In this document: in pieces, positions 34,179 through 42,782 of the stretch | How the letters are laid out: the number at the start of each line of letters is the position of its first letter | Position numbering within the stretch: position 1 is the stretch's first letter | NCBI GenBank assembly: GCA_015521615.1 | Contig: WANW01000051.1 | Span: forward strand, 7,918 to 71,917 | From: Candidatus Hydrothermarchaeota archaeon | GTDB taxonomy: Archaea; Hydrothermarchaeota; Hydrothermarchaeia; Hydrothermarchaeales; BMS3B | Reading direction: 5' to 3' | DNA length: 64,000 nt | Notes under the pieces: model-generated | What the model was told of the DNA's origin: nothing | Database searches by the model: none | What the model saw: only the letters and a program-made list of their open reading frames with translations | Translations under genes and position numbers: made by a program

Positions 34179-35048
34179 CTACTCCACGGGAAACTTCTCG
34201 TACAGCACCTTCCTCCTCGCCTCCAGCATTAGCTCCTCTTTGCCCGCAAACTCTGCGGCACTCACCACGCGCTTGCCAAGCTTTGTGGCAACGTCAAAGA
34301 CTTTACTGAGCTTCTGCCGCCATTCCAGGTCACGCAGCAGATGATGGTCGAGTATCAGATTCTCCACCTTTGTGGTCTCAAGAATTTTTACCAGATTCTC
34401 CACCGACTTATTGAGGCTCGCCTGTGCATAGCGGTAACCCAGCATGTAGCTCATGGGACCGTCGATATAAATCGTGTCCGGATTCTGTCTGAGAATAAAC
34501 TCTGCCTGATCGTCTATACTCGGCCCTTCGACGTCGCTGCTGAAAACAAAGCACTCGTCATCGCGGCGCACTGCAATCTCTGTAACATATCCCAGCCTCG
34601 GATTGGTGCCGTGGTACACCGCCTTGGAGAACACCAGCTCAGTATCGCCGAAGGAGAAGCTTCTGCCGTCGCAGTACTCCAAGCGTTCCGGGAGTTCGCC
34701 GAGCTTCTCAATAAAGTACTTGGCCCTCCCCCTTTGACTACGGTTTATATTTTCTGTAGGGTGCTTCAGCAGCACAAGCTTGCCTTCGTAAATCTCCGGC
34801 TCCTCCGGCGAGTGGTGGTCGTAGTGGTAGTGGGTGACCACCATCACGTCGCTGCGCTCCGCATAGCTCTTGATTCGCTTCCAGTCCTCCTCCAGCTTTT
34901 GATACTCAAGCGGGTGCGGAGGAAGCCCGTACCTCCTGGGCCCAAGCGCAACACCGGGGTCTATTAACACCCTAACGTCGTCGGTTTCAACGTAGGTGGC
35001 CATACTCCTCGTGCCCATCGAATCACTCGCCAGAAGTTCTATTTTCAT
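34179..35048 (-). CDS. Metallo-beta-lactamase-fold protein (archaeal UPF0282-like)
   Basis: An HYHYDHH motif is present. Confidence 0.6.
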   Translation of the reverse strand: MKIELLASDSMGTRSMATYVETDDVRVLIDPGVALGPRRYGLPPHPLEYQKLEEDWKRIKSYAERSDVMVVTHYHYDHHSPEEPEIYEGKLVLLKHPTENINRSQRGRAKYFIEKLGELPERLEYCDGRSFSFGDTELVFSKAVYHGTNPRLGYVTEIAVRRDDECFVFSSDVEGPSIDDQAEFILRQNPDTIYIDGPMSYMLGYRYAQASLNKSVENLVKILETTKVENLILDHHLLRDLEWRQKLSKVFDVATKLGKRVVSAAEFAGKEELMLEARRKVLYEKFPVE

Positions 35049-35133
35049 GCCTCTCCCTTCTCCCTGCGTTGCACCTTATTTATATTGCACTGCAGGAATA
35101 TTAAATTATGCAGATACCAAAGAGGCGGAGGGT

Positions 35134-35904
35134 ATGACGTTTAATATACCTTTCAATAAAAACGAGAAGCTCCGTGAGGTGGTTAGAAGGATAGACAGGA
35201 GCGAGAAGATAAGAGCCTACATTGAAGCGGCGAACGTCACGGCGATAGCCAGGCTGGGCTACAATGACCACGGTTATGTGCACTCAAAAATCGTAGCCAA
35301 CCTTGCCCTGAAGATGCTCCGCGTGCTGGTGAAACATGGGCTAAAGCCGGGTATTGTTAAAGACCATCACCTCACTGAGAATGATGCTGAGGTAGTGGTG
35401 GTGCTCGCCTCAGTATTTCATGACATAGGCATGGCGGTGCACAGGGCAAATCATGTCGAATACGGCACTGCTATAGCCTTTCAGCTCCTCAGCGAACTCC
35501 TGGAGGGCATCTATGATGAACGCTCCAAGGCTATAGTGGTGAGTGAGGCTCTGCATGCTATTTCAAGTCACGAGGTGGGCGTAAAGCCACTAACCTTGGA
35601 GGCAGGCATTGTTACAGTAGCCGACGCTCTGGACATAGCCGGTGGAAGGGCAAGGATACCCTTCTCAAAGGGCAAGATTGACATACACAGTGTCTCAGCA
35701 ATGGCAATTGAGGGTGTTGAGGTTAAAGAAGGAGATGAGGTGCCACTGAAAATCAAAATAAAGATGAGCAACTCCGCGGGAATCTTTCAGATTGACGAGC
35801 TTCTAAAGCCCAGAGTGCTGGAGTCGGGTCTCAAAGACTACCTCCACATTGAGGCAGAGATTACAGGAGAGGAGAAGAGGATTCTCAAAAAAATTGAGCT
35901 GTGA
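35134..35904 (+). CDS. HD-domain phosphohydrolase
   Basis: HD motifs H...HDIG are present. A start at 35134 (MTFNIP) follows a GGAGG. The track start is 34996. Confidence 0.7.
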   Translation: MTFNIPFNKNEKLREVVRRIDRSEKIRAYIEAANVTAIARLGYNDHGYVHSKIVANLALKMLRVLVKHGLKPGIVKDHHLTENDAEVVVVLASVFHDIGMAVHRANHVEYGTAIAFQLLSELLEGIYDERSKAIVVSEALHAISSHEVGVKPLTLEAGIVTVADALDIAGGRARIPFSKGKIDIHSVSAMAIEGVEVKEGDEVPLKIKIKMSNSAGIFQIDELLKPRVLESGLKDYLHIEAEITGEEKRILKKIEL

Positions 35905-35949
35905 AAAGGCGTTACCTATATATCACCGGCTTTCCCCAGTAATACTACT

Positions 35950-36789
35950 ATGCAGGACTACACCGGCTTCTTCGGCTCCCTCATATGGTGGCTTTTTATC
36001 TTCTACCTTGTGCTGGGTCCGCAGCTCCAGCACCGAAGTCTCCAAGCTGCACGGCAGAGGCTGCTCAGAAAGCTGGGTGAGAAGCGGGGAAGCAATGTGA
36101 TAACCCTTATTCACAGGCAGGAGAGCATTGGCCTGTTTGGCATACCCTTTTACAGGTTTATCGACATAGACGACTCGGAGCAGGTGCTCAGGGCGATACG
36201 CTCCACCCCCAGTGATAAACCCATAGACTTAATAATAAACACCCCGGGCGGGCTTGTGCTTGCGGCCAGTCAGATAGCAAGGGCGATTAAGGAGCACAGA
36301 GCAAAAACCACGGTGATTGTACCCCACTATGCTATGAGCGGCGGCACACTAATTGCCCTTGCAGCGGACGAGATACTCATGGACCCCAATGCTGTGCTCG
36401 GGCCTATCGACCCGCAGATTAAGGAGTTTCCAGCACCCTCTGTGCTGAAGGCTGTGGAGAAGAAGGGTGCGGACAAAGTGAAAGATGAAACGCTCATTAT
36501 GGCGGATATCGCAGAGAAGGCGATAAGACAGATTCAGGAGTTCGTATATGAGCTTCTGAAGGATAAGTACGGTGAAGATAAGGCAAGGGAGCTTGCGAGG
36601 GTGCTAACAGAAGGCAGGTGGACTCATGACTTTCCGATAACTGTGGACGTGGCCAGGGAACTGGGACTTAGGGTTAGCACTTCAGTGCCAGAGGAAGTTT
36701 ATTCCCTGATGGAACTCTATCCACAGCCCATAACAAAACGCCATCCAAGCGTTGAGTTTATTCCCACGCCCAGCAAGCAGCAGAAGTGA
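35950..36789 (+). CDS. SDH-family ClpP-fold serine protease with an N-terminal membrane anchor
   Basis: A TM helix is followed by a Clp/SppA-like INTPGG...GxSGG-like core. Confidence 0.6.
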   Translation: MQDYTGFFGSLIWWLFIFYLVLGPQLQHRSLQAARQRLLRKLGEKRGSNVITLIHRQESIGLFGIPFYRFIDIDDSEQVLRAIRSTPSDKPIDLIINTPGGLVLAASQIARAIKEHRAKTTVIVPHYAMSGGTLIALAADEILMDPNAVLGPIDPQIKEFPAPSVLKAVEKKGADKVKDETLIMADIAEKAIRQIQEFVYELLKDKYGEDKARELARVLTEGRWTHDFPITVDVARELGLRVSTSVPEEVYSLMELYPQPITKRHPSVEFIPTPSKQQK

Positions 36790-36791
36790 GC

Positions 36792-37445
36792 CTATTTCAG
36801 GATTACTATGTTGCCCCTGCCCTTTTTTATCTTTTTGATTTTGCCTCTGTGCTCCAGGTCAGTCAGCATCAGGCTGAGCTTTGCTTCAGAGCATCCGAGC
36901 CTCTTCCGCAACTCACTCTGCTTTACCCTTCCTCCTTCCTTTCTTATAATCTCCAGCACCTGGACAAGGTCCTCAGGCAGCGGCTCCGGTTCTTCCTCCT
37001 TTCTCCTCCGTTTCAGATAAAGATAGCCTGCAAAAATTGCCAAAATAATGAAAACGACGATGAGCATAAACAGATAACTGTTACTTTGCTTCCCCTCTTC
37101 GAGGATGCTCACATCGATATCATCAAAGAGAAGTTCCTCCTCGAGAGTCGGAAAGAGTATCAGATCTATTCTGTAGCTACCATTCTGGGGAACCTCAAGC
37201 TCTTCCTCAGTCTCAAGCTTCAGAAGATTGTTCTCGTAATACCTTGCCTTCAGCAGATAGCTTCCCCCAGGTACAGAAAATGAGTAGCTTCCATCTCTTG
37301 ATACAAGTACTTGCTCTGGCGTGGTATTTATCTCCACAACCACCCCGCTGAGGGGCTCAAGGGTTTCCCAGTTGTAGAGGTTACCATAAATTTGAGCTGC
37401 ATAAGTTAATGGCATGCTAAGGAGCAGAAGCAGCAATACTCTCAT
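36792..37445 (-). CDS. Membrane-tethered transcription regulator: signal peptide, extracellular beta-sandwich (carboxypeptidase-regulatory-like), TM helix, cytoplasmic winged helix
   Basis: The signal peptide is MRVLLLLLLSMPLTYAA. The TM helix is LFMLIVVFIILAIFAGYLYL. The C-terminal wHTH is LEIIRKEGGRVKQSELRKRLGCSEAKLSLMLTDLEHRGKI. Confidence 0.55.
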   Translation of the reverse strand: MRVLLLLLLSMPLTYAAQIYGNLYNWETLEPLSGVVVEINTTPEQVLVSRDGSYSFSVPGGSYLLKARYYENNLLKLETEEELEVPQNGSYRIDLILFPTLEEELLFDDIDVSILEEGKQSNSYLFMLIVVFIILAIFAGYLYLKRRRKEEEPEPLPEDLVQVLEIIRKEGGRVKQSELRKRLGCSEAKLSLMLTDLEHRGKIKKIKKGRGNIVILK

Positions 37446-37589
37446 ATGGGATTAGTAACTCCTCTCTCAATTAAATAATTTTCTATGAAGTAAAATAAAT
37501 AAAAAATTTGGCTCATAAACCGAAATAAAGTATCATAAAGCTTTAAATTTTCTGAGTCAAAAGTAAGCTTATATCAATCAAGCGCCGAG

Positions 37590-38786
37590 GTGTTGGCGGA
37601 GGTGATGAAAATGAAGGCGGCAAAAGTGCTCTCAATTGCCCTGGCGGCGATGCTTGTGCTCAGCCTGCTCCCGGCGGGCTATGCGCAGCCGCCTATGAAA
37701 AAGGTAGAAGAGAGGTATAAGGTTGCAAAGGCAAACTACCTCAAGGCACTCGAGGTCTACAAGAGCGCCAGACAGGACTACCTGAAAATGAGGGAGATGG
37801 CAAAGCGAGAGCCGGTGCCCTTTGAGAAGGCAAAGAACTTCCTGCTGCGCAGCATTGACGCGATGATAGCGCACCTCGAGATGGTCAAGGCGAGGGTGGA
37901 TATTACCCGCAGCCTTAGCGAAGAGGAGAAGGCAGAAATCACAGAAACTCTGGATAGCTACATATCCTGGCTGGAAGAGAAAAGACAGGAAGCAGAGCAG
38001 GCAGAGAACAGGGAGGAACTCATCGATATAGCAAAAGAGGTCAGGAAGGAGTGGGCAGAAGCCAGAGTAGAGATCAAGAAAATAACTGGGAAAATCATCA
38101 TATCAAAGATAGATTATGTGCTTGAGAAGGGAGAAGAGATAGGGGACAGACTCGAGGCGAGGATTGAGGCTCTTAAGGAGGAGGGCTACAGCACCCAGGA
38201 GCTCGAAGCCCTTCTGGCTGACTACAGAGAACACCTCAGCTTAGCCAAGGAAAAGAGGGACATGGCCAAGGAGAAGTTTGAGGAGATCTCCTCGGTGGAA
38301 GACGCCCGTATACTCTTCAGAGAAGGCAATGCCTTCGTTAGAGAGGCAAACAAGCACATACGCGAGATGTTCAAGGACCTTAGGCAGATTATAAGAGAGG
38401 TAAAGAGAGGAGAAGCAGAGATCAGAGGGATAGGCTTTCTCTATGCGAAGGGCAACGGCAGCGCAGTGATACAGGGCAATGGTAGCATTTTTGTGAAAGG
38501 AGAGGGCAACCTCACCGTAAAGGTGGTCAATGGAACAGTCCGTGTGGCTGGTGAGGGAGAGAAGCAGGAGAACAGCGATGGCAGCATAACATACATCGGC
38601 TTTGGACGGGCGAGAATTTCAGGCAAAGACCTGTATGTGAGCGTCGAGGGTACAAACCTTGAAATCAGGGCTAGGGGTGCTGGAAAAGCGACACTTACCG
38701 GAGAAGGCTTCTACCGCACGGTAAAGGGCGAGGAGGAGTGGAACGCAGAAGAAGTGGCCTACGGAGGTGCTCAGAATGAGAGCTAG
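37590..38786 (+). CDS. Secreted coiled-coil protein with a C-terminal beta-rich Gly-repeat domain
   Basis: A signal peptide (…LLPAGYAQ) is followed by about 250 aa of Glu/Lys/Arg-rich helical sequence. The C-terminus has Gly repeats (GNGSAVIQGNGSIFVKGEGNLTVKV...). Confidence 0.5.
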   Translation: MLAEVMKMKAAKVLSIALAAMLVLSLLPAGYAQPPMKKVEERYKVAKANYLKALEVYKSARQDYLKMREMAKREPVPFEKAKNFLLRSIDAMIAHLEMVKARVDITRSLSEEEKAEITETLDSYISWLEEKRQEAEQAENREELIDIAKEVRKEWAEARVEIKKITGKIIISKIDYVLEKGEEIGDRLEARIEALKEEGYSTQELEALLADYREHLSLAKEKRDMAKEKFEEISSVEDARILFREGNAFVREANKHIREMFKDLRQIIREVKRGEAEIRGIGFLYAKGNGSAVIQGNGSIFVKGEGNLTVKVVNGTVRVAGEGEKQENSDGSITYIGFGRARISGKDLYVSVEGTNLEIRARGAGKATLTGEGFYRTVKGEEEWNAEEVAYGGAQNES

Positions 38787-39024
38787 GCTGGCTCTGCTGG
38801 GCATCCTCCTGCTGGGACTCCTCCTTCCTGGATGTACATCTAAACCAGAGCAGAAGGCGAGCACTGCCGTGGCACCTGCACCGGAGAAGGTAGAAACAGC
38901 AGCACCTGAGCCGGTGATTGGCGACGATGATGCAGAAATCGATGCCCTCATACAGGAGGTACAGGAGCTGGAGGATTTTCTAAGCGACGTGGAGAGCGGT
39001 GAGATGCTGGACACCGGCATCTAA
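38767..39024 (+). CDS. Small acidic lipoprotein
   Basis: The lipobox is LLLPGC. It overlaps the preceding gene by 20 nt. Confidence 0.45.
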   Translation: MLRMRARLALLGILLLGLLLPGCTSKPEQKASTAVAPAPEKVETAAPEPVIGDDDAEIDALIQEVQELEDFLSDVESGEMLDTGI

Positions 39025-39039
39025 TTTCTCTTTTTTATT

Positions 39040-39801
39040 TTACAAAAAGGTTACAGAACACTTTACCTTCGCAGACATACCTAATTTTGCTGCTATTTCT
39101 TCAGCAATCATTACACAGGTATCATTAAGTTCATTTCTCAACAATTCTTCAAAGTTTTTATCCTTTGTACCTATTACACCCTTGGAGTACTTTACAACCG
39201 CAATTACAATAAACTCAAGCACCTGACCATCTATATTTGGAACAACCCTGATGCTCAATCTTTTTACCCTCTGGTTCCGATTAAGCCTGCTTCTAAGCTT
39301 ATCCCTGAACTCCCTGGCTATGTCAGTTGTATTTCTTTCATGAACGAGATATTCTGTAACAATAAAGTTCAGAAGACCGTCGAGTGGTTCTTCTTTATAG
39401 GATGTATCTTCAACTTCTGGAAGAGGTGGCTGGACAGTTTTCTGGTGGTGCTGGAGAGTTATATTTCCAACGATCTTGCGAAGATACATATTAAGAAGGG
39501 GTATGTTGGGCTTCTTGTTGAACTCCATATAGACTATACTGTCTCCAAAGAGCTTAACATAGCTCGCTCCATTTGCCCCCTCAATCAGGATCTCTTCAAG
39601 ATTTCCCAAGTCAAAAAGTATTGATAGCTTGAAGGCAAGTCCCTCCCCGTCCTGAATGCCACACGCAGCAATTTCACCATCTCTGGATAGAAGAGCACAG
39701 CCCTTTATATATTTAAAGCTTTTCTTTAGCTTTTCAAGGTGACCTGCAACATCTGCCTTCTCATCAGCTTTACCTTCAGCTACTTCCAGATGCATCTGCA
39801 C
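39040..39801 (-). CDS. Roadblock/LC7-domain protein with a roughly 140-aa C-terminal extension of unknown function
   Basis: The N-terminal Robl pattern is KGCALLSRDGEIAACG...GASYVKLFGDSIVY. Local GC is about 40%. Confidence 0.55.
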   Translation of the reverse strand: MQMHLEVAEGKADEKADVAGHLEKLKKSFKYIKGCALLSRDGEIAACGIQDGEGLAFKLSILFDLGNLEEILIEGANGASYVKLFGDSIVYMEFNKKPNIPLLNMYLRKIVGNITLQHHQKTVQPPLPEVEDTSYKEEPLDGLLNFIVTEYLVHERNTTDIAREFRDKLRSRLNRNQRVKRLSIRVVPNIDGQVLEFIVIAVVKYSKGVIGTKDKNFEELLRNELNDTCVMIAEEIAAKLGMSAKVKCSVTFL

Positions 39802-39820
39802 ACCCGCCAGTATCTAAAAA

Positions 39821-40147
39821 TCATATTGAAACTCCTGAGATTATATCGGCAACATCGGAAAGCATCACAGCCTCCGGAGTATTTTTGTCGAAGAATACCA
39901 CCAGCTCTGCCTCCTCATGCCTCACCACCACTGCTTTGCAGTCAGAGAACCTCAGTTTTGCTGTCGTGTACTCTTCACATAGCTCGCTGATCAGAGCTAC
40001 AGGTATGACTGCCATCTCCTTCAGGTCCTGCTTTTCCTCTGCACCAATAATCTCCCCATCTTTAATAACATAGCAGGATATCACATTTTCCAGTTCGGCT
40101 ATGTCACTCGCCAGCTTATGTGCTATAATATCCTCCAACTTCATCAC
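39821..40147 (-). CDS. Roadblock/LC7 (MglB-like) domain protein
   Basis: 108 aa. The VISCYVIKDGEIIGAEE...AELVVFFDKN pattern is present. Confidence 0.55.
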   Translation of the reverse strand: MMKLEDIIAHKLASDIAELENVISCYVIKDGEIIGAEEKQDLKEMAVIPVALISELCEEYTTAKLRFSDCKAVVVRHEEAELVVFFDKNTPEAVMLSDVADIISGVSI

Positions 40148-40682
40148 CGAAGGCGTGCTGTATTATCATATCTATCTCCTCTTCCGTCGGCTCCTTAAGC
40201 TTAAGCCTCTTAAGCACCTCCTCCCTGGTCACTGAAGCCTCTTCTCTGAGAACACGGTAGATGTCCAGAATTGCCCTGCTCTCCTTCAGTAGCTGGTTGT
40301 AGTTACCATTGCAGTAAACAAGATTGCCATTCCTGTAAACAATATAGACTCTCTTCAACCTCTTGGAAAAGGCCCCGACCACCACATGCGAATGGCTCTG
40401 AGCTATTTTTTCAAGGTCTTCCTTCACACTGTTGCTAATCCTAGTTTCAATTTTGTTCACAGAGTATTCAATGTTGTCAAGCTTAATCCTCTTCTGAGCG
40501 CTGTAAAGAGCAATCACCATCTCCTTCTTATGTTCGGGCGGATCACCTCTCGTTGCAACAATTTTCCTCCCCTGGACTATAATCATCGACTTTCCATCGG
40601 TGGCCTTTACCAGATATTTCTCAGAAAGATTTAACAGATCTTCTATATCCACCCCCGCTTTATACACTTTTACCGGCTTCAT
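40116..40682 (-). CDS. Hypothetical protein, possibly a divergent Roadblock-like N-terminal domain. First gene of the low-GC operon.
   Basis: 188 aa with no P-loop. ATDGKSMIIVQGRKIVATRGD resembles the Robl beta-hairpin. Confidence 0.35.
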   Translation of the reverse strand: MKPVKVYKAGVDIEDLLNLSEKYLVKATDGKSMIIVQGRKIVATRGDPPEHKKEMVIALYSAQKRIKLDNIEYSVNKIETRISNSVKEDLEKIAQSHSHVVVGAFSKRLKRVYIVYRNGNLVYCNGNYNQLLKESRAILDIYRVLREEASVTREEVLKRLKLKEPTEEEIDMIIQHAFGDEVGGYYST

Positions 40683-40764
40683 AGCCCGCCCCGCTGAATT
40701 TCAATTTGGTTTTTCTAATTATGTCAATTTTTATTATATAAATTTAACGCTCTTGTTTATTTAC

Positions 40765-40784
40765 AATGGACAAAATTGTCCATT
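40765..40784. promoter_or_regulatory. Inverted repeat AATGGACA-aaat-TGTCCATT in the promoter of the Roadblock operon
   Basis: Perfect 8-bp arms, read directly. It lies 83 nt upstream of the first ORF start at 40682, in AT-rich DNA. Confidence 0.4.
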
Positions 40785-40834
40785 ATTATAAAAGTAAAAA
40801 ATTATAAAGTAGAATTTAATAAAATTAAGATTGT

Positions 40835-41311
40835 TCATTTCATTATAACAGTCGCCCAGTTACGGGCAACTGCAAGGATATTGCTGGGAGAATTGTCCAC
40901 AATCTCTCTCACTGTGCTCCCGGTTATTTCAGGATGTCTGGAGTTTATCCCCAGAACAAGAAGGTCCACATCCTCCTCCTTTGCGGTCTTTACTATTTCC
41001 TCAGCTGGCAGGCCAACTCTTATAATCTCCTTTGCATTAACACCACTGTTTTTAAGGCAGAGTTTTGCCGCCTCAATTGCCCTCTTCCCTCTGTCATCCA
41101 GCAGATTTTTTATGTCCTTCCCCTCCTCAAGAAGGGACTCTATAGTACCCTTGAACTGAGCCTCCCCGAGGAGGTCATGGTGAAAGATATCACCAATATT
41201 TGCCACATAAATATACTGAAGCTCTGCATCAAATTTCCTGGCCAGTTTTACCCCAGTAAGTAACGCTTTGATTGATACATTACTCCCATCAAAAGCAACA
41301 AGCACCCTCAT
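40835..41311 (-). CDS. Universal stress protein (UspA family)
   Basis: The sequence pattern VLVAFDGS...DLLVLG...GSTVREIV is present. Confidence 0.8.
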   Translation of the reverse strand: MRVLVAFDGSNVSIKALLTGVKLARKFDAELQYIYVANIGDIFHHDLLGEAQFKGTIESLLEEGKDIKNLLDDRGKRAIEAAKLCLKNSGVNAKEIIRVGLPAEEIVKTAKEEDVDLLVLGINSRHPEITGSTVREIVDNSPSNILAVARNWATVIMK

Positions 41312-41434
41312 AACATTGTTAACTTATAACATTCTATATTTATATCTTTCGAATTACCCCCATAAAACACTTACATTATTAACAAAAACTTTTATATATT
41401 TACTACAAAAAATGGTAGTGGCGGAGGAGACTTT

Positions 41435-42211
41435 ATGGGGGTCTCTATTACGATAGCCTCTGGAAAGGGCGGCGTTGGGAAAACAATGCTTACCAGCAAC
41501 CTTGGCATTGCTCTGGCTCAGTTCGGTAAGAATGTAACAATTCTCGATGCTGATTTACAGATGGCGAATCTGGAACTTCATCTCGGGATGGAGGGGATGG
41601 AAATCACCCTTCAGGATGTACTCGCCGGAAAGGCAGAGATATCTCATGCAATATACCGTGGACCCGGCGGAATAAATGTGGTTCCAGCAGGAATAAGTCT
41701 GGATGGTCTCAGGGAAGTGGATATGAATATACTGGAGAAGGTGCTCGGGAAGCTTCTTGAGGAGACAGAGATACTGCTTATAGATGCCCCAGCAGGTCTC
41801 GGTAAGGCTGCGGTTACTGCTCTCGCATCAGGGGAGCACCTTCTGCTGGTCGCAAATCCCGAAATCTCATCCCTCTGTGACAGCCTCAAGACCGCAATGG
41901 TTGCCCGGAAACTTGGAACTAAGGTACTTGGTGTTGTTCTGAACCGGATGAGTTTTGAGAAAGGTGCAATGAATGTCAGAGATGTGGAGTTTATCCTCGA
42001 AACAAAGGTGGTTGCCACAGTTCCGGAGGATCCGGAGGTGAGGAGAAGCACAACCTATGGTGAGCCGGTGATGATAAGAAGCCCTCACTCACCGGCAGCA
42101 CAGGCAATAAAAAAGCTGGCTGCAGACCTACTGGGGAGAAGATATGTTGAATCCACTAAAAGAGAGGGTTTCTTCAGACGGTTATTGGATGGGATATTCG
42201 GAAGGGTTTAA
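41435..42211 (+). CDS. MinD/ParA-family deviant Walker-A ATPase
   Basis: The deviant Walker A is [13 protein letters not shown] motif is present. Confidence 0.85.
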
Positions 42212-42236: not shown

Positions 42237-42782
42237 ATGTTCGCCACAATTGTAATAGTACTTATAAATATCATAATCTACATATTCTTCGCCGCAAAAG
42301 CTCCGTCTCCCCTAACAATAAGCGAATTCTCCCCCGCCATGGCACTTACACTTGAAACCCTGAAAGAGGGGGAACTCAGCAGACTTATAACCAATTTCTT
42401 CTTTCACTTCGATTTACCCCACCTCGGGTACAACATGCTATTTTTGCTGATATTCGGAAGCAGGTGTGAGGAGATTTTTGGCACCCGGAGGTTTCTGCTA
42501 ATCTATTTTGTCTCTGGCATCTTCTCCTCACTTTCCATATTCTTTTACCCTCCGGGCAGCTCGCTTGCTGGTGCAAGCGGGGCAATCTTTGGTTTGCTTG
42601 GAAGTGTACTTGTTGCCCAGCGTACCCTCTATGCCCACGGCTTTGCAACCTCGCTGCTCTATGGCATGGTGTTCTTCATCATAGCCGTCACCACAGGCTT
42701 CATGGCCCATCTTCTGGGCCTGATAATGGGTTTTGTGCTGGGCTATGTTTTCACCTATGGTGAGGAGAGCCATGACGAATAA
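42237..42782 (+). CDS. Rhomboid-family intramembrane serine protease
   Basis: GASGAIFGLLG and AHLLGLIMG motifs are present. Confidence 0.75.
   Translation: MFATIVIVLINIIIYIFFAAKAPSPLTISEFSPAMALTLETLKEGELSRLITNFFFHFDLPHLGYNMLFLLIFGSRCEEIFGTRRFLLIYFVSGIFSSLSIFFYPPGSSLAGASGAIFGLLGSVLVAQRTLYAHGFATSLLYGMVFFIIAVTTGFMAHLLGLIMGFVLGYVFTYGEESHDE

Follow-up and report, generated by a model that had tools for sequence, protein, structure and literature searches.

A conserved archaeal gene module in which a predicted membrane-tethered winged-helix regulator and two divergently encoded exported proteins flank a phased repeat array

Few of the routes that lead from the archaeal cell surface to a promoter are understood. 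Transmembrane transcription regulators (TTRs) are common in archaea, with 1,384 of them in 367 species (Demey et al. 2023, PMC10269533), and ArnR and ArnR1 of Sulfolobus acidocaldarius, as cited in PMC13286277 and PMC10269533, are characterised membrane-bound regulators of the archaellum. In this study, we examined a locus in a 64,000-nt stretch of contig WANW01000051.1 from Candidatus Hydrothermarchaeota archaeon (the window, whose positions serve as coordinates throughout), where the gene of a predicted membrane-tethered winged helix-turn-helix (wHTH) protein, P1, is separated by an intergenic repeat array from two divergently transcribed genes for predicted exported proteins, P2 and P3. The closest relatives are Ca. 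Pyrohabitans (Hydrothermarchaeota) metagenome-assembled genomes (MAGs). All three open reading frames (ORFs) lie where a first-pass annotation had placed them from the ORF list, with the start codons of P2 and P3 now adjusted. We find that the genes and the array very probably form a genuine conserved module with a cis-element of its own and, at about even confidence, we read P1 from its sequence and structure model as a transmembrane one-component regulator that acts on the array and controls P2 and P3. The grouping had been taken for one without a described counterpart, which holds for the module as a whole but not for the regulator class, since TTRs are known in archaea (PMC10269533). Module and operator both appear undescribed in the literature searched, which returned nothing relevant on DUF7343, PF24034, DUF5667 or COG2512; the Pfam entry for DUF7343, the family of P1, presents a domain of unknown function, with neither partner genes nor an operator in its description.

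In general layout, P1 resembles the regulators of the ToxR/ToxS, TcpP/TcpH and CadC systems, being a single-pass protein with a cytoplasmic winged helix, an extracytoplasmic domain and small exported partners. The likeness to ToxR extends to the DNA: the ToxR box is TNAAA-N5-TNAAA, and the presumed P1 sites, likewise A-rich, are direct repeats spaced by one helical turn. In contrast to ToxR, CadC and TcpP, however, the topology of P1 is reversed, with its N-terminus outside behind a cleaved signal peptide and its wHTH at the C-terminus. Further, this wHTH is of the DUF7343 kind (MarR/ArsR/Lrs14-like) and not of the OmpR/PhoB type found in ToxR and CadC, and P2 and P3 are unrelated to ToxS and TcpH. 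We rejected a ToxR/CadC/TcpP-like identity for P1 on its reversed domain order and its lack of an N-terminal OmpR/PhoB-type wHTH; a Pfam comparison at E <= 0.1 returned no Trans_reg_C match for P1. ArnR and ArnR1, the only characterised archaeal membrane-bound regulators in the literature searched, are transcription factors that act from the membrane, as we propose for P1, but are unrelated to it. ArnR has an N-terminal HTH, C-terminal transmembrane (TM) helices and no exported sensor domain, and its targets are archaellum and pilus promoters. An assignment of P1 to ArnR/ArnR1 was likewise rejected, as P1 has the wrong order for it (N-terminal signal peptide and ectodomain, C-terminal wHTH) and no sequence relationship.

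The domain architecture of P1 is well defined. Its N-terminus is a hydrophobic signal peptide ending LTYA/AQ, and a single strong hydrophobic segment (aa ~122-146) is followed by KRRRK. Residues 158-216 match Pfam DUF7343 (PF24034) with an E-value of 8.7e-18 and 64.4 bits (gathering cut-off 27.6), over profile positions 3-61 of 62. An AlphaFold2 (AF2) model built on 54 homologs, with a mean predicted local distance difference test (pLDDT) score of 87, gives the order beta-sandwich (17-99), disordered linker (104-120), TM helix (122-148) and wHTH (158-216), the last of these consisting of three helices and a beta hairpin, or wing. The modelled tether after the TM helix is very short and leaves the wHTH ~10 residues from the membrane. 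Foldseek matched the ectodomain to the transthyretin-like (TTL) domains of carboxypeptidases D, N and M, to the CPR domain of teneurin and to SlaB (E 5e-5 to 1e-3), and the tail to MarR/ArsR-type wHTH regulators; the ectodomain also has a weak Pfam CarbopepD_reg_2 match. Signal peptide, extracellular beta-sandwich, single TM helix and cytoplasmic wHTH, all named by the first-pass annotation, are thereby upheld, and the DNA-binding fold of the tail is a confident assignment by profile, model and Foldseek alike. By definition, P1 fits the TTR class, with a predicted DNA-binding domain and at least one TM region in one polypeptide. The earlier description as a one-component transmembrane transcription factor is thus well supported as an architecture; as a function it is plausible, in that we infer DNA binding and regulation of transcription from the membrane from the adjoining conserved array and the invariant wHTH.

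P1 belongs to a widespread archaeal family, with homologs in 217 database clusters at E <= 1e-3, all of the listed ones carrying PF24034, and 462 relatives in the species-representative genomes scanned. Across 80 orthologs, the wHTH is invariant at GGR.TQ, at an R, at SEAK.SL and at K.KKGRGN, equally so in the orthologs linked to P2 (n=38) and in the unlinked ones (n=42), and the invariant residues of the ectodomain are G21, Y24, Q45, Y54, G61 and D94. Geoglobus, Ferroglobus and Archaeoglobus sulfaticallidus are among the carriers of an unlinked P1. Where P2 is the most distant full-length version (P0132), the P1-like gene (L004 1973-2426) is found downstream of it, on its strand, as two ORFs of 61 aa (TM) and 99 aa (DUF7343), a division that may reflect a frameshift or an assembly error.

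Synteny was counted over the 80 best P1 loci, which we scanned with family hidden Markov models built for this analysis. A P2-family gene adjoins P1 in 38 of the 80, and these loci come from Hydrothermarchaeota, Archaeoglobi, Methanosarcinales/anaerobic methanotrophic (ANME) archaea and Woesearchaeota/Nanoarchaeota. The two genes are directly divergent, with a gap of 130-680 nt, at 32 of the 38 linked loci. In Ca. Pyrohabitans jungbluthii, P1 is on one strand and P2, 82% identical to P2 of the window, lies on the other together with an 82-aa gene. Archaeoglobus profundus has a P1 of 219 aa, a P2 of 512 aa and a downstream 71-aa lipobox gene; the corresponding sizes are 237, 509 and 72 aa in a Woesearchaeote, and 262, 283 and 81 aa at a locus whose P2 is helical only. 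In a Methanosarcinaceae MAG (L091 3977-4396), a P1 of only 139 aa has the TM helix and the wHTH but no ectodomain, and genes of 541 aa (P2) and 96 aa accompany it. The three genes had been expected to be syntenic in other genomes, and this is what we observe in four lineages, with P3-like genes usually following P2. Beyond Hydrothermarchaeota, the 80 loci share no other conserved neighbour among the genes of the window. That the adjacency is fortuitous and the genes functionally unrelated is hardly credible, given that gene order, orientation and cis-element are kept in four distant lineages while other neighbours change.

A shared operator had been suggested for the AT-rich intergenic region, and the region indeed contains an array of phased 10-bp repeats that spans phyla and is specific to the module. 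Its units start at 37515, 37525 and 37535 and read ATAAAC-CGAA / ATAAAG-TATC / ATAAAG-CTTT in the P2 sense, or AAAGCTTTAT GATACTTTAT TTCGGTTTAT in the P1 sense, in which the consensus is AAAGCTTTAY AAAGCTTTAT TyNGGCTTAT. We aligned 34 divergent P1/P2 intergenic regions by anchoring them on the motif; every one of them has two or three phased 10-bp units, and the 8-mer AAGCTTTA is present in 26 of the 34, against 0.6 expected from shuffles. In A. profundus (L007), where the module is complete, the units number 4-5. The intergenic region is near-identical between the window and the Ca. P. jungbluthii loci. In the 64-kb window the array is the sole exact tandem match, and tandem matches with one mismatch number four (two of them within the array) compared with a mean of 0.81 in dinucleotide shuffles. 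P1-P2 intergenic DNA contains 26 tandem copies in 9.9 kb, whereas the remaining non-ORF DNA of these loci contains a single one in 40.7 kb, an enrichment of ~100-fold over other non-coding DNA; the corresponding 8-mer counts are 56 and 7. Where P2 is adjacent, the element is found upstream of P1 at 32 of 40 loci; where it is not, at none of 41. When all metagenome contigs were searched for the exact 20-mer of the array, it turned up in 83 places, 80 of which were examined: P1 and/or P2 homologs adjoin 23, and the other 57, with neither, are heterogeneous (hairpins, coding sequence, AT-rich contigs). Rfam returned no family match within window positions 36000-40000.

In the P2 sense, the array is followed after 15-40 bp by a canonical predicted BRE/TATA (transcription factor B recognition element and TATA box) and then by a Shine-Dalgarno sequence. 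The P2 BRE/TATA reads CAAAAGTAAGCTTATAT in the window, CGAAAGAATGCTTATCT in A. profundus and AAAAAAGTTTATTTATAAA in Woesearchaeota, and boxes of the form CGAAAG-N4-6-TTATAT/TTTATA occupy the equivalent place, downstream of the array, in other phyla. Towards P1, four Hydrothermarchaeota loci share a conserved TTTATTTTA block after the array. The array is thus located between two predicted core promoters and upstream of both. It could still be bound by a different factor, or be an unusual multi-BRE/TATA promoter of a highly expressed P2, with P1 acting otherwise, for instance by using its wHTH to hold DNA or a partner protein at the membrane or to control genes elsewhere in the genome. Each unit (AAAGC+TTTAY) does resemble a BRE joined to a TATA box; moreover, P1 occurs without the array in 41 loci, and the array accompanies P2 even where P1 is not adjacent, with array-like repeats still 80-120 nt upstream of P2 at the A. 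sulfaticallidus locus and at locus L176. We nevertheless regard this explanation as rather unlikely. The canonical BRE/TATA downstream of the array is separate from it, the array is too rare elsewhere in the non-coding DNA of these genomes to be a general promoter form, and P1 is the sole DNA-binding protein of the module, with contact residues as conserved as the motif.

The layout around the array also recalls the Cpx system of Escherichia coli, where cpxP is divergent from cpxRA, the tandem sites are one helical turn apart and a lipoprotein, NlpE, takes part. Here too, the gene of a secreted, all-helical protein is divergent from that of the regulator, tandem sites lie between them and the partner is a predicted lipoprotein. 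In many loci the array, read in the P2 sense, is GTAAA-N5-GTAAA, which is the consensus of the CpxR box; this identity is most likely coincidence or convergence. In contrast to Cpx, P1 would unite sensor and regulator in one polypeptide, and the resemblance is one of layout and motif only: P1, P2 and P3, compared with Pfam and NCBIfam, gave no match to CpxP/LTXXQ, histidine kinases or response regulators.

How might P1 act on the array? That it binds this element we hold to be somewhat probable. No other protein of the module is a DNA-binding one, and both the contact residues of P1 and the array are conserved across phyla. The units are one helical turn apart and therefore all face the same side of the DNA, an arrangement suited to a wHTH held ~10 residues from the membrane. 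Taking these points together, we infer that P1 would bind the array from the membrane and as an oligomer. Several P1 molecules, aligned in the membrane plane, would accordingly occupy one DNA face at two to three AAAGCTTTAY units and would activate both the P2-P3 operon and the P1 gene itself (autoregulation). Activation is favoured over repression, if with low confidence, because the array lies upstream of both predicted BRE/TATA pairs; as a general rule for archaeal regulators, sites upstream of BRE/TATA point to activation. Four points weigh against the proposal. The Methanosarcinaceae P1 has no ectodomain, and therefore ectodomain sensing is not universal. In roughly half of the orthologs, P1 stands without a neighbouring P2 and without an array close by. 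Regulators with a MarR/ArsR/Lrs14-type wHTH usually bind palindromes as dimers, and not direct repeats; each array unit does contain the palindrome AAAGCTTT, so that binding may follow either the direct repeats or the palindrome. Finally, the TATA and transcription start site positions are themselves predictions.

Membrane-held P1 might instead be inactive until regulated proteolysis releases its wHTH as a soluble factor. Two protease genes of the window are candidates for such cleavage, that of an SDH-type ClpP-like membrane serine protease (35950-36789, plus), which is convergent with P1 and ends 3 nt from the P1 stop, and that of a rhomboid protease (42237-42782, plus) downstream of the module, whose counterpart in Ca. 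P. jungbluthii directly follows P3. As a type-I single-pass protein, P1 belongs to the substrate class of rhomboids, and the very short modelled tether between TM helix and wHTH counts in the same direction. Across the 80 loci, however, the SDH protease adjoins P1 in three and the rhomboid in one, neither outside Hydrothermarchaeota, and units phased on one DNA face fit a membrane-retained factor rather than a released wHTH. We therefore consider release by proteolysis improbable, and name both enzymes as candidates for processing a type-I membrane regulator that are neighbours of P1 only within Hydrothermarchaeota.

For P2, the ORF list gave a GTG start at 37590, and hence the 398 aa of the first-pass annotation. 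The product probably has 391 aa from the ATG at 37611, because all 11 of 11 homologs start at this position and GGAGGTGA precedes it; its predicted secretion and its divergence from P1 stand. In the AF2 model (pLDDT 79), a signal peptide precedes a bundle of six long helices, and the C-terminus is all beta. For the supposed ~250-aa coiled coil we prefer the term helical bundle. The family looked rare in a word-indexed search, with 12 matches, but exhaustive profile searching raised the number of cluster representatives to 3147 (E <= 1e-3), of which 1538 remain at E <= 1e-10 and 280 at E <= 1e-30. No segment of the family is conserved well enough for sequence patterns to be derived from it. Two size classes can be told apart, one of ~400 aa with helical and beta domains and one of ~280 aa with the helical domain only. 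Scans of P2 and diverse homologs against Pfam and NCBIfam gave no family above threshold, and Foldseek returned no significant match of the P2 model to solved structures. The label DUF5667, which UniRef attaches to the A. sulfaticallidus P2 homolog, was rejected, as it could not be reproduced: the DUF5667 model has no match in P2 of the window, in P0198 or in 52 family members, even at E <= 1-10.

A link to LiaF/PspC and DUF4097 had also been proposed. In the Lia/Psp envelope stress response, the proteins LiaG, LiaF and YvlB carry DUF4097/DUF2807 beta-helix domains (PMC9239133), and the exported, Gly-punctuated beta-repeat domain encoded beside a regulatory gene is reminiscent of them. The link did not hold up: no DUF4097 match was found in the P2 C-terminal domain, no PspA, PspC or LiaI partner accompanies it, and many P2 homologs lack the beta domain. 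What similarity there is falls below the cut-off, with DUF2807 matching 4 of 21 members in one set and 3 of 52 in another (E >= 0.011), and a weak match of the C-terminal profile to residues 470-541 of the T4 gp5 triple beta-helix among PDB sequences (E 4e-4), a fold in which VxGxxxxx octapeptide repeats form an intertwined trimer. We term this C-terminus, which shows long beta strands in the AF2 monomer model, a Gly-punctuated beta-repeat and do not assign its fold to a known class. These same weak matches, including those to DUF2807 adhesin-head models, would suit a chiefly structural role of P2-P3 as a surface or adhesin complex, perhaps in the form of a trimeric beta-helix spike whose helical stalk is anchored through the lipid of P3, with P1 only setting its level and sensing no stress. 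The His/Gly-rich or poly-acidic extensions of some lineage variants and the long flexible linker of P3 could be read alongside them. We think this unlikely, as all beta-helix and adhesin matches are below family thresholds and many P2 family members, the Woesearchaeota versions included, are without a beta domain; it is also compatible with P1 regulating from the membrane rather than exclusive of it. The lineage-specific extensions of P2 (L007 3276-4814, L009 1627-3156, L090 5001-6749) take several forms: in A. profundus a His/Gly-rich repeat follows the signal peptide, A. sulfaticallidus has an additional N-terminal helical region, and in Woesearchaeota a ~90-aa poly-Asp/Glu tail replaces the beta domain.

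P3 was listed with a GTG start at 38767, giving an overlapping lipoprotein of 85 aa. The lipobox and the overlap with P2 are confirmed, but the length is likely 82 aa, from an ATG at 38776 that has GGAGGTG 6 nt upstream. This start overlaps the end and stop codon of P2 by 11 nt, which places the P3 Shine-Dalgarno sequence inside P2. The protein has a lipobox-like L-P-G-C with Cys20 and an atypical Pro at -2, then a Pro/Ala-rich linker and a very acidic C-terminus; we counted the motif as a lipobox under the pattern [LVI][ASTVI][GAS]C, and lipid modification is predicted. Orthologs carry LAGC, IAAC, ITGC, TLGC and similar lipoboxes. Under strict criteria, P2 has a small, acidic-tailed lipobox protein encoded after it at 21 of 37 evaluable loci, a number that rises if GTG/TTG starts or larger gaps are allowed, and the last 30 residues of these P3-like proteins have a mean net charge of -8.5. 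Pfam and NCBIfam scans of P3 returned no family above threshold. At L043, L048, L074 and L083, from Nanoarchaeota/Methanosarcinales-labelled MAGs, P2 is followed by a larger lipoprotein and not by a short acidic-tailed P3; it starts ...VGACTS... and has a domain GRVVFAVTDAAADMG..VKVTVDSVKVHS.

Read together with the proposed action of P1, these gene products suggest a possible circuit. P2 and P3 would be made in fixed proportion from their overlapping genes through translational coupling, would both be exported and would probably form a membrane-tethered surface complex, with the acidic C-terminal segment of P3, on its flexible lipid-anchored linker, plausibly tethering the helical bundle of P2. 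The P1 ectodomain would read a cue from outside the cell, in the simplest case how much P2/P3 is present or in what state, or else some other envelope ligand, and the cue would be converted into P1 clustering or stability, closing a feedback loop. Signalling of this kind, as in ToxR/TcpP, is favoured because no HAMP-like transducer lies between the P1 TM helix and the wHTH. That the element serves an envelope feedback circuit is offered tentatively, and we keep the envelope-sensing or envelope-stress role assigned by the first-pass annotation as a hypothesis. Because the module is found in cultivated Archaeoglobus, in ANME methanotrophs and in minimal-genome DPANN archaea, it suggests a basic envelope function.

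It is more speculative to see in P1, the array, P2 and P3 an ancient, archaea-wide circuit of envelope homeostasis analogous to the bacterial Cpx/ToxR-type systems, which we consider doubtful. If true, a regulator-operator pair, the SEAK.SL/KKGRGN wHTH and the phased AAAGCTTTAY, would have been kept near-unchanged from Hydrothermarchaeota and Archaeoglobi to ANME and genome-reduced DPANN, and few specific transcription factor/operator pairs in Archaea would be conserved as widely. P1 would be the first archaeal transmembrane regulator with a readable cis-code, and P2 would found a large (>1500 clusters) unannotated family of secreted proteins. The module offers, in any case, a compact and testable system, consisting of a regulator with a defined extracellular domain, a predicted 20-30 bp operator and two exported target proteins. 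It gives a functional handle on three unannotated families, the DUF7343 membrane proteins, the P2 family and the small P3 lipoproteins, and the phased CTTTAY units provide a sequence rule for finding further regulon members. The positions of all features are collected in Table 1.

Table 1. Features of the P1-array-P2-P3 locus, in window coordinates
Feature	Position	Strand	Basis
P1, 217-aa type-I membrane protein, DUF7343 family	36792-37445	minus	ORF, Pfam PF24034, AF2 model
P1 cytoplasmic wHTH, aa 158-216	36798-36974	minus	DUF7343 match, AF2 pLDDT 92-95, Foldseek
P1 TM helix, aa 122-146, KRRRK on cytoplasmic side	37008-37082	minus	Kyte-Doolittle maximum 2.76; AF2 helix 122-148
P1 extracellular beta-sandwich, aa 17-99, transthyretin-like/CarboxypepD_reg-like	37149-37397	minus	AF2 pLDDT 95-98, Foldseek
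Predicted TATA region of P1, TTTTTTATTTATTTTAC	37490-37506	minus	conserved TTTATTTTA block, sequence only
Array of three helically phased 10-bp units, candidate operator/upstream activating site	37515-37544	no strand	motif conservation
Predicted BRE/TATA of P2-P3 operon, CAAAAGTAAGCTTATATC	37558-37575	plus	invariant between window and Ca. Pyrohabitans jungbluthii
P2, 391-aa predicted secreted protein	37611-38786	plus	homolog start alignment, AF2 model
P2 signal peptide	37611-37685	plus	
P2 helical bundle	about 37695-38414	plus	
P2 beta domain	about 38433-38762	plus	
P3, 82-aa lipobox protein, acidic C-terminal helix-like segment	38776-39024	plus	ORF, start analysis
P3 lipobox LPGC	38824-38835	plus	

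Among the neighbouring genes, those of the SDH protease, the rhomboid, an HD-domain protein and an MBL-fold protein were rejected as core parts of the module, their conservation being confined to Hydrothermarchaeota. A 302-aa HD-domain ORF (34996-35904, plus) overlaps the start of the divergent MBL-fold gene (34179-35048, minus) by ~50 nt; its true start is probably further downstream, because the ortholog at L001 has 256 aa. At L001, genes for a DUF4079 protein and a cupredoxin lie between the HD and MBL genes, and the window has neither. HD-domain and MBL-fold genes adjoin P1 both in A. profundus (L007) and in the window (34179-37445), which suggests old microsynteny, although neither came up as a homologous neighbour when the 80 loci were screened. 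In the window, a ~3.2-kb block (39040-42211) separates P3 from the rhomboid gene; it recurs in MAG JAADFX010000052 (L013) and is absent from Ca. P. jungbluthii (L001/L011), where the rhomboid directly follows the P3 homolog. The block encodes proteins of 253, 108 and 188 aa without family matches (the 188-aa protein has a weak DUF2226 match), a Usp protein and a MinD/ParA-like protein.

Two further occurrences of the array motif concern other genes. Within the 3.2-kb block, a tandem copy with one mismatch, CTTTATAATTTTTTAC, lies at 40794-40809 (minus), ~110-125 nt upstream of the 188-aa/108-aa/253-aa genes; it is AT-rich and may be a chance match. Further, on five related AT-rich contigs (L093 4254-4273, L095, L100, L142 and L164), with no P1 or P2 in view, the exact 20-mer lies ~120 nt upstream of a gene whose product, a secreted protein of ~150 aa, has a PKD-like DFGDGT motif and may be a further member of the regulon.

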